A stretch of 64,000 nt of DNA, taken from NCBI RefSeq assembly GCF_006345805.1, contig NC_043001.1, positions 110,360,001 to 110,424,000 on the forward strand, read 5' to 3'. A model generated the notes under the pieces. It saw only the letters and a program-made list of their open reading frames with translations. It had not been told where the DNA came from and did no database searches. Both the position numbers and the translations under genes were made by a program. The DNA is from Octopus sinensis. Its lineage: Eukaryota. This document shows, piece after piece, positions 55,046 to 62,396 of this stretch. Each line of letters starts with the position of its first letter. Within the stretch, counting starts at the first letter, position 1.

Positions 55046-56219
55046 AAATACCGCTAAGCGTTTTTTCCGGCACGGTAAGGATTCTGGAAGCTCACCCCTT
55101 TACAACTTAAATTTAATTTTGCAAATCAGAAATATTTACGCGAAAGTCTTTAAGGGGAAATAAAACATGAAATGCAACTCTTTACTAAGGCACGTTAGGA
55201 CATCAGGCATACCTATTCGACTCTAATGCAAGTATTGTTGCCTCATGTTCCCAGGAACCAGTTATTTGTATGTTGAATAGGTTGGTGTAGATAAACACCT
55301 AATCCTTCAGAGCAGAGTTGTTTCAGTTCGTTATTTTATACTTCTATTATTTATACTAAGACCCCGTAACTTATTTCTTTCCTGTGTTACAAACTCAAGC
55401 TGCACCTCTGTTATCATTTATCGCACCACAAATACACGATTTTATCTATTAGTGGTCGGTCTGAATTTCGAAGGACGTTGAATCTCACTTCTTCACCTGC
55501 CTAATAATTTTTAGGTGTCATTGCCTTTTATGCAACAGCTGTTGTTGATATTTTCATTTTGCAGTTGTTGTTTAGTCCCAGGCAATTCATACAAAATTAA
55601 ATCCCAGCCAAAACTACGCAGTGCGTTACCAATATGTAGGATCACGTTATCCAATATGTTCTCTCCTTATTTGTTACGTCAAAATGCGATTTGCAGACGA
55701 TATGATGGTTTCATCTAATAAGGTCAATCAGCCACGTAAAGGCTTACCCTTCGGCACGTTTTGCTATCAGCAGAGGTGAAAAATGGTGGATATAGCGTTG
55801 CATGGTTCTGATACTTATTGTTAAGCGTGATTAAATGAATATTCTCCAGTCACAATCTGACAGATGCCTATTTATTCAATGCAAATTTGATGCTTTTTCT
55901 GACCCCACAGAAATGGCCTCTGCTTTGGTATGCGTTGTTGCACCTGCGATCTGTATTTAATTACCATGAATGGGTATTACAGGTGGGTGGTAGTGAGGAT
56001 TTGTATATGGCGGTTGGATTATATTATTGGAGAAAGAAGAAACAGCAAGCGTTTACTACTGAGAACTTCTTTGGGGCAAAATGAAATGATAATTGGTGAT
56101 GGAGGAAGGAAATTGGAAAGAAAATGTTATTAATTATGAAGAATAAAACAAATCGAAAACGAGGCTAATGAGAAAGTTGAAGTGGGTGGGTCAAACAATA
56201 AAATCGGGAAGAATATTAA

Positions 56220-56585
56220 AAGTGTGGCTGTGTGGTAAGTAGGTTGTTTAGCAAGCACATCGTTCCAGGTTCAGTTCCACTGCGTGGGCCCTTGGGCAAG
56301 CGTCTTTTACCCACCAAAGCCCTGTGAGTGGATATGGTAGACGGAAGGTGAAAGAGGTTTGTCATTTATACATATATATATGTGTGTGTGTATGTTTGTG
56401 TGTCTATTTTTGTCCCCCAACACCGCTTGACAACCGATGCTGGTGTGTTTACGTCCGCGAAACTTGGCATTTCGGCAACAGAGCCCAATAGAATACGTAC
56501 TAGGCTTACAAAGAATAAGTCCTCGGTTCGATTTTTCTCTACTAAAAGCGGTGTTCCAGCATGGCCGCAGTCAAATGACTAAACT
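56220..56585 (+). mobile_element. SINE family A, abutting the truncated end of the PLE
   Basis: Family A head to CAGCATGGCCGCAGTCAAATGACT; the AAAAGAG tail is missing. Confidence 0.85.
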
Positions 56586-58006
56586 AAATTTAGTCGTTTG
56601 TTGTTTTTTATGCTATATTTGTTTAATATGTTTTTCATTTTGGGGCTTTGTAAGGCTATTGGTAGGTTTGAATGTATGGTTTGGAACATGTTGGTAACTC
56701 CAGGGTTGTGCATGTTTATAAAAGGGATAATGTTTTCTTTGTTTTTTGTTTTGGGTGTCCTGAGTTGGTCGATGTCTAGTTTTAATGCTCTTGTGATTCC
56801 TTCTATAGGTTTAAGGGGGTATTTTTGCTCTTGGAGGAAGTTTTTAAGTTCATCTAGTCTTATTAGTCGTATTTGTGAATCAGTTACTATGCTACATATT
56901 TGTCTTGCCATACTATATGGGATGTTTCTTTTTGTGTGTGATGGGTGGCAGGAGTGGAAATTTAAATATTGGTGTGTGTCAGTTTTTTTGTAGTGGATGT
57001 CTGTTGTGACGATGGAGTTGTGTATTTTGATGTTGATGTCTAGGAAGGGAAGTTCGTTGTAGCTGGTATCTATTATGAAGTTGATAGATGGATGCAGCGT
57101 ATTGAGGATGTTGTGGAATGTTCGTAGGTCTTCTTCTGATCTGTTCCAAAAGATGAAGCAGTCATCGAGGTAGCGTTTCCACTTTTTCTTGATGTCTTCT
57201 TTGAAGTCGTGTTCGAAGACTTTCCCTATTTCATCGTATAGTTTGTTCTCCAGGAAACCCATCACCAGGTTGGCATATGAAGATGCGAAGTTTGTACCCA
57301 TAGCCGTGCCTTTTATCTGTCGGTATGTCTTGTTGTTGAATGGGAATGTATTTTCTTCGAGTATTAATTGGGTGGCTTGGGTGATAAAGTTTGTCTTGAA
57401 GCGTTCGTCTATAAGTTCTCTGTATTTTTCTATCGATTGTTTTATTGCTTCTAGACCTAGGGTGTGTGGTATGTTTGTGTATATATTTGTGACATCAAAG
57501 CTTGCAAGTATGGTGTTTTTCGGGACTGTATTTGGAATGTGTGTGAGGAAGTCTATGTCATCCCTTATGTAGCTTGGTATCTGTGGGCATAAAGGTTTGA
57601 GGGGTATATCTATGAAGTGGCTTAGTTGTTGTGTTGGTACCTGGGGTCCTACCACTATTGGTCTCATTGTGAGGTCTGCAGGCCTTTGTATTCTTATATA
57701 GTGGTTCCTCTGTTCCTTTATGGCTCTCTGTATTTCAGAACTTTTATGAATTTTAGGTAATCCATAAAAATTGCTTTCTTTGGTTCTTGAGTTGTATAGA
57801 TAGTCTTTTTCCTTATCTGTAAAGGAGTCCTGGTATTTATTAACTAAAGTTCTAATTTTTTTTATTGTTGATTTCTCCGGTGGTGTTGGTTCCTCTTTAT
57901 AGTATGTCTGGTTGTTCAGTAACTCCAGTATCTTTTCTTTGTCGTAATCTGTATCCATAATTACTATTGCTCCACCTTTGTCAGCTTCTTTTATAATGAT
58001 TGACAT
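56579..58006 (-). CDS. Penelope-like element reverse transcriptase, open 475-aa fragment (endonuclease missing)
   Basis: ADKGGAIVIMD, FYGLPKIHK, RPIV, SFDVTNIYTNIP, YRQIKGTAMGT, KRYLDDCF, LPFLDI and YKKTDTHQYLNFHSCHP are all diagnostic PLE RT motifs. Homology appears to continue upstream to about 58160 through a frameshift near 58050. Confidence 0.92.
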   Translation of the reverse strand: MSIIIKEADKGGAIVIMDTDYDKEKILELLNNQTYYKEEPTPPEKSTIKKIRTLVNKYQDSFTDKEKDYLYNSRTKESNFYGLPKIHKSSEIQRAIKEQRNHYIRIQRPADLTMRPIVVGPQVPTQQLSHFIDIPLKPLCPQIPSYIRDDIDFLTHIPNTVPKNTILASFDVTNIYTNIPHTLGLEAIKQSIEKYRELIDERFKTNFITQATQLILEENTFPFNNKTYRQIKGTAMGTNFASSYANLVMGFLENKLYDEIGKVFEHDFKEDIKKKWKRYLDDCFIFWNRSEEDLRTFHNILNTLHPSINFIIDTSYNELPFLDINIKIHNSIVTTDIHYKKTDTHQYLNFHSCHPSHTKRNIPYSMARQICSIVTDSQIRLIRLDELKNFLQEQKYPLKPIEGITRALKLDIDQLRTPKTKNKENIIPFINMHNPGVTNMFQTIHSNLPIALQSPKMKNILNKYSIKNNKRLNLV

Positions 58007-58190
58007 GTCATTTTTCAGTTTTTGTAAGGCTTGTTTTTCTCCTCTGCGGGAGATTCTGTTTGCATTTGTGTGTGTGGAGAGGGAATTTGGATATTGTCTC
58101 TATGTATGCGTCAAGGTGTTTGTCACTTCTCGTGTAAGGGCTGAAATGGGATTTTTTTCTTAAGATTGAGTTATCTTATATATATTATAT

Positions 58191-58250
<60 letters not shown>

Positions 58251-58660
58251 TGTATATACACATACACATATATATATATATATATATATACATATATTCA
58301 TACATATATGTATATACACATACAATATATATATATATATATAATATATATATATATACATACATATACATATATACATACATATATGTATATACACATA
58401 CAAATATATATATACATACATATATACATACATTTTATGCATATATATATACATATATACATACATGTATACATACATTTTATACTAATATCTATTTTTT
58501 CTTTTAATAATTACATTAGTTACGGAGATGTACTTGCATAGCAAGTGATTTGATCTGAGATCGTGTGCTGAAACGAAAATAATTGCAGCGTGGAAGGTGT
58601 TTGTAGGCCATTTAAGAAACACACAAAAACCGTTCGATTCACTTCAACATTTATGTTTAA

Positions 58661-58711
58661 TTTGTCAAAATATTTTCGTCGCTTTAAGACCGCGACCTGT
58701 TCACTGACAAA
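58661..58711 (-). ncRNA. Minimal type I hammerhead ribozyme variant (G3-C8 core), mirror copy
   Basis: Minus strand TTTGTCA-GTGAACA-G-GTCGC-GGTCTTAAA-GCGAC-GAA-AATATT-T-TGACAAA. Confidence 0.62.
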
Positions 58712-58728
58712 AATCCGTGGCACGGATT

Positions 58729-58779
58729 TTTGTCAGTGAACAGGTCTCGGTCTTAAAGGGACGAAAATATTTTGACAAA
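58729..58779 (+). ncRNA. Minimal type I hammerhead ribozyme variant (G3-C8 core)
   Basis: TTTGTCA-GTGAACA-G-GTCTC-GGTCTTAAA-GGGAC-GAA-AATATT-T-TGACAAA: 7-bp helix I, 5-bp helix II, palindromic helix III. Confidence 0.6.
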
Positions 58780-60419
58780 TTAAACTTAAATGATTACTTT
58801 AGTTTTATTTCATTTACTACGTACCAAATAAAATAAAATAAGTGCAGAAGTCAAATGGTAATTTTCTTAGTATTGTAGAAGTTGTATATGTGAGTAAGCA
58901 ATGGAGAAATACTTCCCAGCCTCAAACAAGACTGACAAATCTCTTACACAGAACAAAGCTTAAGGCCGACTCAGTATTGACATTAACTCCCTCGTTTATC
59001 TTCTTGCTTTAACTGATATATATATATATATACATATACATAGATGTGTGTGTGTTCCGTATGTATGAACGTATGTATGTATACATCTATGCATGTATAA
59101 ACTGAATTAATTACAGGCGAGAGGTTTTAAGTGCCAGTTTCTTTCCCCCTAAAGTCATGTCAATTTTATTGAGTAACAAGTGACAACGAGAAAGACAATG
59201 TACATCACAAATTCTATTTTCTTTAAGCCTGGAGTACAGGAGATTCCTTTTTGCCTATTAACAAACAAACCAATCTTTATTGTAGCTTTCTACCCACAGA
59301 GAATATATTAGTGATAGTTTCTGAGATGTTTCAAATTTCTTGTTTCCTTTTCGTGAATCGCAAAGTTACTTATCGAAGGGAAATGGAGAATTTTATTAGA
59401 TGGCTTCTAAGGCGGAACAGGATTATACCGGAAGTAGAGCTTTAACCGGATATTGAAACCAAACTCTTGGAGAATAGCTGCCATCATATATTTTGATTTA
59501 CAATACATAACAAAACATGCAATAGATTGATAGTTCCTTCATCAAATCACAAATGCATATTTGTGCTTGACTTCCAAACACAAATGTCCATTATGCTTGG
59601 ATTCCTATCAGATCTAATTAACTGATAATTTAGAAATTATTCTATGTTTATTAAAGGTGTAATAATTATTACTATTTTTGTAGCGGTTGTTTATGTCCAG
59701 CTCAGACCTGATCAAATAGAACTATGAGAAATATGAGCGCCAGTTGTTAGGTTCATCTCTCCTTGACAGCTCATTTTTGGAGAGCTAAATTATTTGGAAA
59801 ATCACTCCAATCACCTCCTTATGTACAAGGCCAGCAATTTTTAGCTGGTATTCATTTTATCAGCCTCGAAAGGAGGAAAGTTAAAGTCGACCTCGGCGGA
59901 ATTTGAACTCAGAACGTAATGCTGACACTCACATTGGCAACTAATATCTACAATGCATATACATATTATAGACGAGAATCAACATCAGCGACTCAGTCCC
60001 CTAAAGCACTTATCAAATCCGATTCAGGTTAGCAAATTACATAAAATAAATGAATGAAAGATTTCTTTCTGATATTGTAGGTTTAAAATTATCGCGTGAT
60101 CAAACGACAAAGAAAACACTTCGAATTTACTGATTTCTAACGAAATAACCGATAATAACATAAACACACATATACATACATATATGCAAGCAAACATGCA
60201 CAAGCATACGCATTCCTATATCTATGTATACGTATGTAAACATACACAGATATATTGGGTTGTCCGGAAAGTTCTGAGCGTTTTTTGATATACAAAACGG
60301 GTTATAATTGACCTTTCAGTAAATTTTATTCAATGAAATAATTTCCATTATTATTAATGAATTTTGTCCATCTATTAGGCATTTCAAATATCCCTTAGCA
60401 TAAATTTTGAAGAAAATTA

Positions 60420-61087
60420 GTTAGCCCACTGTGGTCTCCTCACACAAGACAAAACATCTCCAGAATTGAGTCACCCCAGAGGGCTCTCACTAAACAAATT
60501 GAAGGCATGGCTGCTCTCGATTATTGGGATCGCCTTAAAGCCTTGAAACTTTACTCCCTCCAGCGTCACCGTGAGCGGTACATCATTTGTACGATGTGGA
60601 AAATATACCGCCAACTTTGCCCAAACGACCTAAACATTAGCTTCAAGGTTCATCCAAGACTTGGACCACGGGCTATACGTCCCTGCCCAATTCAAGATCA
60701 CAACATACATGTACACTGCAACATAATTTCTTTTCCTCAACAGGCCCTGCCCTATTTAACATTGTCCCGAGGGAGATCAAAGAGGAAAAGGATCCCATCA
60801 ACTTTAAACAGAGTCTGAATAGATTCCTTCAAAGAATACCAGATAAGCCACCCATAATTGGATACAACTCACCCAACAAGAACTCACTCCTTGAACAAAA
60901 CTGGATACAACTCACCCAACAAGAACTCACTCCTTGAATAAAACTGGATACAACTCACCCAACAAGAACTCACTACTTGAACAAAACTTGACTTAAACAG
61001 GATTCGAATAATCCTATCAGGTGGTGCTATTAAGTTAGACATGGCCTGGACCAATCTTTGGTCGAAACATATCTAAGTTTATCTAAT
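60420..61087 (+). mobile_element. CR1/L2-group LINE 3' fragment
   Basis: SPLWSPH...IESPQRALTKQIEGMAALDYWDRLKALKLYSLQRHRERY (ORF 60507..60818), then GPALFNIVP...FKQSLNRFLQRIPDKP. Short 3' UTR with hairpin GACCAA-TCT-TTGGTC and a short ATCTAA repeat tail. Confidence 0.85.
60858..60986. repeat. 43-bp tandem triplication
   Basis: (C/T)TGGATACAACTCACCCAACAAGAACTCACTCCTTGAACAAAA at 60858, 60901 and 60944. Confidence 0.95.
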
Positions 61088-62396
61088 ATCATTAAATGTT
61101 TGTCCTTGCAATGAGTTGTGTAGTGGCACAAACAAGGGGTAATCAAAGGGGAAAATGTCAAGAAAACATGATTTCATTCTGTTTCAAAAGCATATCACAA
61201 ACAGAATATCGGTCGAAGCAATTCTTTTTTGAGAGCTTCTGAGGGACCCATACATTAAAGCGAGAAATGTATCCTCGCTTCACTAGGTGTTCATGACTTG
61301 TACTTTAAGAAACTTTCAACTCCTCTGTAAGTTCTCCGGTCATGTTATTTGAGTTTTCTTCGGCATTTGCCTTGAAAAAAATCTTCATCCAATTTTGAAG
61401 GTCTTCCAGTGCGACTGTCAGCTTCCAAGCTAAACTCTCCAGCTTTAAATTCTGCAAACCACCTTCGAACAGTTGATTCACTTACAGCATTTTCTCTTTT
61501 TTTATAAAAAAAAAAAAGGCATTACAAGGCGAATATGAAATTTTTGGTTATCCATTTCAAATGTCAATAAAGGGTAACCGGAATGAAAGACAAATCTAAT
61601 TTTAGGAAGGAGTAAGAGATGCTCTACCACTTCAAGCAATGCCTAATTTTTTAACTGTGCTACCTTTCAGGTGTGTTCAATGAAACGTTAAACGATTTAG
61701 CTTTAAAATTCTTAGAACATGGAGAAAAGAGGAACGTGTATAACATTTAGGAAGGAATGTGGAAGAACCGTGTCTTTTAAACAAAACCCTTTGCGATATT
61801 TGTTCTGCATAGAATTACACATGCGCTCCCTAAAACTGTAGCTGCAGGACATGCAAAGAAACGGTCACTAGATTGCTTATGACCTGTTGTTAACAGACTT
61901 ATTGTTCACTAATTGTATTATACAATATTAAATTTCGTAATAATTGTATTTTTAATGAAATTTAATGAAATGTTTTCTTTCGTAATTAAATTATCCTGTA
62001 TGTGATATCCCTTCAGCAAGAGTAATATAATTGTAGAATCAATTAAAGAAAAAACAGAAACTTTACTCTCAAACAATCGGAAGTTCAACCAAAAACTAAC
62101 TTTAATTGTGGACAAATAATCAACCATAAGAAAAGAATACCTGTAAGGCATAGTTTATCGAACGATAGAATACTGAATAGAAAAATTAATTCGTATTTGT
62201 TATGTAGAAGTAGAAACAGAGAGTAAAAATGGGTACAAGAAATGAATGCACATACAAAATGTACGAAGAAACAAAATTTGTTTCAGAGAGCGAGAGAGAG
62301 AGAGAGAGAGAGGTGGGGGAGGCAGAGGGAAAGAAAACTGTAAAGAACGCTGAGTGTAGAGTAAATTAAAATTGTGAAGAACAACTAAAAGATGTG

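Follow-up and report, generated by a model that had tools for sequence, protein, structure and literature searches.

The palindrome at positions 58648-58792 of the window (that is, the whole 64 kb stretch of Octopus sinensis DNA that was analysed) is best explained as the centre of a short insertion derived from the terminal repeat of a young, high-copy Penelope-like element (PLE), which carries a predicted hammerhead ribozyme with a family-wide G3-C8 core pair; the back-to-back layout of the insertion likely arose from the insertion process. We assign this reading a probability of about 0.85. The PLE origin and the inverted terminus that had been proposed for the palindrome are retained, while the locus itself is ordinary and the palindrome likely a simple by-product of insertion.

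Structure of the insertion and its two predicted hammerheads

As originally predicted, the palindrome consists of two 72-nt arms (58648-58719 and 58721-58792) separated by a 1-nt spacer, which are 96% complementary and differ at exactly three position pairs (58693/58747, 58681/58759 and 58654/58786). The left arm continues beyond the limits claimed for the palindrome, as far as 58519, and the unit measures about 210 nt. Comparison with a paralogous empty site (L163) delimits the whole insertion (58519..58792, 274 bp) as a long arm of the PLE terminal unit (pLTR) joined to a shorter arm in inverted orientation. The long arm (58519..58719, minus strand) carries the hammerhead followed by the start of the parent ORF and stops at the distal 3′ end of the family, as judged from other copies and from L208, a tandem copy of the parent; it is 94-98% identical to 29 other loci and can be aligned to the 5′ pLTR of L208. 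The ORF is represented by its first 31 codons (58519..58611, minus strand, with the ATG at 58611), which match the start of the ORF in L208 and are truncated by the end of the insertion.

The copy in the window is atypical in two respects. Its short arm (58721..58792, plus strand) stops early, at about unit position 81, which leaves the outer end some 70 nt shorter than the family norm (142-158 in 39/40 inversions), and the remaining target duplication is only 4 nt long, with one copy of ATTA on the left (58515..58518, plus strand) and another on the right (58793..58796, plus strand), instead of the 9-13 nt that are usual in the family. Because the duplication is reduced to ATTA and the short arm ends near position 81, the outer part of this arm was likely deleted later. 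A duplication of 11-12 nt was considered for this insertion and rejected, as the empty site shows 4 nt. The uninterrupted target in L163 is itself a repeat. The target sequence in the window (58486-58518 and 58793-58860) belongs, as a fragment, to another dispersed repeat (L163-L170) and seems to lie here in rearranged pieces. Elsewhere in the window, at 60856-60991, three 43-bp tandem copies end an apparent LINE 3′ fragment.

It had been suggested that raw data might expose the inversion or its mismatches as assembly errors. One contig of run X1, which is possibly the assembly's own sample, is identical to 58721-58784 (0 differences), so the right-arm letters over this interval are not assembly errors; the palindrome in full is spanned by none of the contigs. 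The empty joint 58514>58793 is found in contigs of three of the four DNA runs, with just 20 letters on its shorter side, and these contigs probably represent other target-repeat copies.

A hammerhead descriptor with positions 3, 7 and 8 left free, run over the whole 64 kb, matched the two arms alone, with cores at 58736 (plus strand) and 58704 (minus strand). Ten locally shuffled windows gave 0-2 matches at loose settings and none, in 10/10 cases, at the helix lengths of the motif. The motif parses as TTTGTCA / GTGAACA / G / 5-bp helix II / GAA / AATATT / T / TGACAAA, which corresponds to a three-helix junction with a 7-bp helix I, a 5-bp helix II and, as helix III, the short palindrome AAUAUU. 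The literal core CUGANGA is absent, GUGAACA taking its place in both arms, and the other core features (U4, G5, A6 and A9; G12, A13 and A14; A15.1-U16.1; the NUH triplet) are kept. In the left arm, the predicted hammerhead (58661..58711, minus strand), which has the family-type sequence, would be built from helix I (58711-58705/58667-58661), the core GUGAACA (58704-58698) with the extra G next to it, and helix II (58696-58692/58682-58678), followed by GAA, AAUAUU and U17 at 58668. Its predicted counterpart in the right arm (58729..58779, plus strand) has the core GUGAACA at 58736-58742 and U17 at 58772, and its helix II includes the private letters T58747 and G58759. The cuts that had been predicted at 58772 (plus) and 58668 (minus) follow from this parse, and the sequence data support a naturally occurring type I hammerhead of the minimal PLE form whose core pair is G3-C8. 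The motif is indeed overlooked by standard searches: an Rfam scan of 56000-62000 returned hairpin and microsatellite noise and no hammerhead match up to an E-value of 5.

The pair of changes within helix II had been interpreted as covariation between the arms, and this interpretation has not survived comparison with the rest of the genome. The right-arm sequence with both changes has a single genome match; among 70 sampled arms the flagged pair is U-G in none and G-C in 56. Single or double decay at this pair is common, helix II departures mostly break pairs, and double changes are seen among the 70 arms at other helix II pairs as well. A subfamily with the U-G pair was also considered, and rejected since none exists in the genome. 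The chance that two of three mismatches fall in one pair is about 0.6-1.6% for a single palindrome; because this amounts to roughly 1% per palindrome and yet there are thousands of arms, the U-G pair of the right arm is best read, from its sequence, as private decay.

The expectation that a long hairpin would compete with the ribozyme fold fared better. The hairpin is predicted at -105/-102 kcal/mol, versus -37 kcal/mol when the hammerhead helices are forced, a difference of about 65 kcal/mol in its favour. As each strand holds one ribozyme together with its antisense, and the modelled hairpin is far more stable, the ribozymes in this particular copy are likely inert. It could nevertheless be argued that the palindrome itself is functional, either as a selected ribozyme pair or as an ADAR/Dicer hairpin, the step from G-C to U-G being selected covariation. 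Such a view would draw on the low chance (about 0.6-1.6%) of a double mismatch in one pair and on the contigs of four presumed-RNA runs that include the family unit, a coverage that is not locus-specific and is uninformative on strand, ends and editing. We consider it highly improbable, given that the U-G change is found in a single genomic arm when thousands were available, that the two-ribozyme layout likewise occurs in 15/40 sampled inversions, and that the ribozymes lie on opposite strands, with the hairpin dominating predicted folding.

The terminal-repeat family and its parent element

The reading of the palindrome as an insertion by-product is best appreciated from the other copies. Exact matches to the G3 pattern number 4,082 genome-wide, versus 0 for the reversed control, and an exact pattern taken from the unit's 3′ part has 6,458 matches (control, 0); both counts are lower bounds and refer to arms, not loci. 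Loci were sampled from the first 100 of the 6,458 matches, that is, from the start of one chromosome. The 86 loci obtained (L072-L157) were reduced to 79 by discarding seven that overlapped or were too short, and then to 73 independent loci by discarding six that shared flanks. Back-to-back inversions are present in 40 of these 73, 15 of them with two whole hammerheads, so that the special status once attributed to the palindrome is lost. One inverted insertion was met six times on one chromosome with the same flanks (L081, L108, L132, L135, L151 and L152), having been carried within a larger repeated segment. Nine multi-copy loci were examined and are local duplications that include the flanks, or a large inversion; the copies are solo or back-to-back, and the head-to-tail hammerhead arrays by which non-LTR retrozymes are recognised were not seen.

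The positions at which the arms end are strikingly regular. The long arm ends at unit position 197-211 in all 40 inversions and the short arm at 142-158 in 39 of them (at 97 in the remaining one), and in no case (0/40) do both arms stop at the same site. Long inversions at the endonuclease loci likewise have arms with differing ends (9/9). The arms overlap at their junction by 1-11 nt in 22/40 inversions, and more than half of the copy 5′ ends (64/118) fall at unit positions 1-10. Flanks of at least 8 nt are shared in 54 of the 73 loci, versus 52 of 300 mismatched flank pairs; target duplications outside (TA)n are clear and measure 9-13 nt, and many others sit in (TA)n and are hence ambiguous.

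The original prediction also pointed to a reverse transcriptase (RT) fragment about 500 bp away. This fragment (56582..58099, minus strand; Pfam RVT_1, E 3.4e-8) has a 506-aa open frame that lost its 3′ end before the endonuclease, and it belongs to an unrelated PLE family. Given that it lies on the same strand, some 500 bp off, and that pLTRs and 5′ introns are known in PLEs, the palindrome might be imagined as its inverted 5′ pLTR, the (TA)n tract then serving as an intron. We regard this as extremely unlikely. In its other copies, the neighbouring RT runs on into an endonuclease of its own and a distinct 3′ end, and the hammerhead unit lies within 1.5 kb downstream in 0/29 of them; the protein of the true parent is just 27% identical to this RT over 156 aa; and the unit is a separate insertion into another repeat. 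The family of the neighbouring RT (56582-58170, minus strand) comprises 742 candidates that are 94-97% identical, with a cysteine linker and a (TA)n-rich 3′ end, and in the 1.5 kb that follow the RT end the descriptor detected no hammerhead.

The true parent of the inserted terminal repeat was traced via locus L161. In 26 of 30 loci with the parent endonuclease (seed included), the unit lies 0.5-1.1 kb downstream on the same strand, and the parent copies are 97-99% identical to one another. A single ORF holds the RT, a cysteine linker and, at its C terminus, an endonuclease of GIY-YIG type, with the unit at the 3′ end of the element. For instance, L201 has an 839-aa open frame in which DKS, YVDD, the cysteine linker and YIGET can be read by eye; Pfam assigned no family to this frame, and homologues carry the name "reverse transcriptase domain". 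In L208, a partial tandem (pLTR-ORF-pLTR), the unit stands in front of the ORF and contains its ATG. The family thus displays a partial tandem (L208), inverted copies (40/73) and two 3′ ends, all of them PLE traits. Copies of a protein named from Octopus vulgaris are found at 91-98% identity in the O. sinensis genome, and a scan of IMG/VR returned no relative.

Some further features of the parent deserve mention. In its RT (L201:4962-7478), motifs A and B′ are separated by about 65-70 additional residues and DKG is replaced by DKS; its relatives number 154, mostly in unannotated marine-type assemblies. Judged from its sequence, the parent might represent a C-terminal EN+ subclade not yet described, with a fingers insertion, and its linker motif would fit Neptune or Nematis alike, the tree of relatives having been built without named reference clades. 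Additionally, a branch-point-like CTAAC, a pyrimidine tract and YAG stand at L208:4020-4046, immediately ahead of the 5′ end shared by the short copies; in these, (T)GAG often precedes the unit, and the long copies have the splice-acceptor-like sequence. No spliced pLTR form was identified in the contigs, and both an intron and a capped start site fit the common 5′ end.

An insertion mechanism can be proposed on the basis of the end positions, on which the priming model is solely based. The element endonuclease would nick both target strands about 9-13 nt apart, and both strands would prime reverse transcription on uncut element RNA, one target end at unit position ~209 and the other at ~151. 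Both cDNAs would be copied towards the 5′ end of the RNA, situated some 60 nt upstream of the predicted cut; they would then join, often via a few shared letters, to give a pair placed back to back, with one side carrying a tail. The templates are taken to be uncut because copies keep sequence upstream of the predicted cut. The accessible text of Frangieh et al. 2024 (PMC11167929) describes a PLE protein which, at AT-rich sites, nicks both strands and extends them; its RT has two internal start sites just inside the ORF, with uncut RNA as the main template. The formation of PLE inverted repeats is listed as open in the accessible part of Craig et al. 2021 (PMC8557442), which describes inverted 5′ copies as typical of PLEs, and the rule of one site per arm (39/40) places a sharp and testable constraint on it.

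The 3-8 core pair and the question of catalysis

The 3-8 pair is G-C in 66 of the 70 sampled family arms, the remainder being single decays or a gap, and G3-C8 is present in autonomous copies too. Within the family, none of 95 matches with another letter at position 3 has C3-G8. Frequent subfamily differences fall in loop II (five columns) and the flanks, none being found in the core or stems; copies within the family are too young for covariation to show.

The comparison between families is more informative. This genome also contains a sister family (58% protein identity, nearest row of the tree, support 86/99), which has a hammerhead in 30/30 loci, with C3-G8 in 35 of 37 motifs. Its helix II reads G-U-C-A-C/G-U-G-A-C, versus G-U-C-G-C/G-C-G-A-C in the family of the palindrome, and the difference is one A-U for G-C exchange, at the pair that had been flagged earlier. 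The sister motifs (L232-L261, e.g., L232:2598-2660) lie about 750 nt behind the matched stretch, have a non-palindromic helix III and, in 36/37 cases, show C for A at core position 9 (CUGAUGC). C9, which also occurs in L211 together with U3-A8, is a second core variant that would be invisible to standard descriptors.

Metagenomes provided 21 loci, of which the nine with 3′ flank were examined. Among these relatives (42-48% identity), C3-G8 is found in L212, L213 and L214, and U3-A8 in L211, with motifs that lie 89-147 nt behind the ORF match, include the extra nucleotide and have a helix III that is palindromic. The other five (L215, L221 and the near-identical L217, L219 and L220) yielded no motif. 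The hammerhead of L213, 89 nt behind the end of the ORF match (4883), has U15.1-A16.1 and a palindromic UAGCUA. In L217, L219 and L220, CUGAAGA is found about 130 nt behind the ORF with a short stem and AAAA instead of GAAA, possibly a further variant or a decayed motif.

All six families that yielded a motif consequently have a Watson-Crick pair at 3-8: G-C in the present one, C-G in four others and U-A in one. Because the relatives hold C3-G8 or U3-A8 at the same place and in the same architecture, G3-C8 is, as far as sequence comparison can tell, a true compensatory change and the family-wide wild type, which places the swap noticed in a single palindrome on much firmer ground. By simple parsimony, G-C would be the derived state.

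These data are also relevant to catalysis. With the same element and inversion origin, the G3-C8 motif could be a dead or nearly dead relic, a protein-binding structure or simply unselected. The sampled copies show no trace of cleavage, as only 2 of 118 copy 5′ ends lie at the predicted cut, both explained by helix I microhomology. Moreover, in the accessible text of PMC11167929, hammerhead mutants were without effect on insertion in vitro and in Anolis no read had its end at the cut site; minimal PLE hammerheads of metazoans are poor cleavers (PMC4209133), and the relatives include further core departures, namely C at 9 and U15.1-A16.1. By contrast, Watson-Crick pairing at 3-8 is retained, with three different pairs, in 6/6 motif families, which requires double changes; U4, G5, A6, G12, A13 and A14 are identical in all six; and the subfamily changes spare the core and stems. 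A relic is, on this balance, a serious but doubtful explanation.

We would give slightly better than even odds to a ribozyme that works, if at all, slowly, as a dimer or helped by protein, in pLTR-ORF-pLTR transcripts. It would act in transcripts of the parent tandem, where two same-strand copies would pair their AAUAUU. As far as the accessible texts go, a PLE hammerhead needs protein in order to cut and is rescued in part by C3G/G8C (PMC11167929), and a hammerhead with U15.1-A16.1 is active at a lower rate (PMC3088659). Still more tentative, and somewhat short of an even chance, is the full proposal of a natural, active and undescribed G3-C8 hammerhead as the wild type of a recently mobile, multi-thousand-copy octopus PLE, with lineage-wide 3-8 changes and ordered two-site priming. 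If true, the hammerheads of this lineage have passed through C-G, G-C and U-A at 3-8 as well as C9 and U15.1-A16.1, and ordered priming at two sites and on two strands would explain how PLE inverted termini are formed. C3G/G8C is the classic laboratory rescue, and a retroelement family with the swap as wild type would be a natural proof of the pair, to which the sister families with C-G and U-A add. Having A8 or C8 in an unchanged core also tests whether just the sugar at position 8 matters. In any case, thousands of motifs in one genome escape CUGANGA descriptors and Rfam.

Comparison with known systems

The published systems are represented in what follows by the accessible parts of their articles. 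PLE hammerheads, inverted termini and U3-A8 were already known (PMC4209133, PMC3088659, PMC8557442), and G3-C8 was known as an engineered mutant (PMC11167929, PMC8495972, PMC3884650). A natural G3-C8 was not found in the literature and supplement text searched; Lunse et al. 2017, which lies outside that text, may list one. The natural core variants of Perreault et al. 2011 (PMC3088659) include a compensatory U3-A8, and G3-C8 is not named among them in the text.

The closest published PLE-type hammerheads share with the octopus family the type I topology, the extra nucleotide between 9 and 10.1, G10.1-C11.1 and a weak palindromic helix III, as well as the location in the pLTR; they are mostly dispersed single motifs, sometimes with two nearby on opposite strands. 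By contrast, they have C3-G8 or U3-A8 and include no octopus, whereas the octopus family has G3-C8, and their helix I is 4-5 bp long, compared with 7 bp here.

With respect to the whole element, the parent resembles Neptune/Nematis-type C-terminal EN+ PLEs (PMC8557442) in its RT, CX2-5CxxC linker and GIY-YIG endonuclease, in the cysteines between two endonuclease motifs, in its (TA)n preference, and in its partial tandems, inverted 5′ copies and hammerhead near the 3′ end. It differs in having DKS for DKG and about 65-70 residues more between A and B′ than the RT in the window, an insertion that canonical C-terminal EN+ PLEs lack according to Craig et al. 2021 (PMC8557442). Its cysteine linker sets it apart from Penelope/Poseidon, which are without one.

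Poseidon PAc of Anolis carolinensis (PMC11167929) has in common with the octopus family a hammerhead at the pLTR-ORF junction, AT-rich targets, an uncut RNA template and two 3′ ends inside the start of the ORF, which leave a tail. This tail is about 57 nt in the octopus family, versus 30-40 in Poseidon PAc, and the octopus ORF begins behind the ribozyme, unlike that of Poseidon PAc. In the latter, C3G/G8C was engineered and is partly active, whereas G3-C8 is the wild type in the octopus family. Finally, the arms use different ends in 39/40 octopus inversions, while no difference in start site between the strands was seen with Poseidon PAc in vitro.
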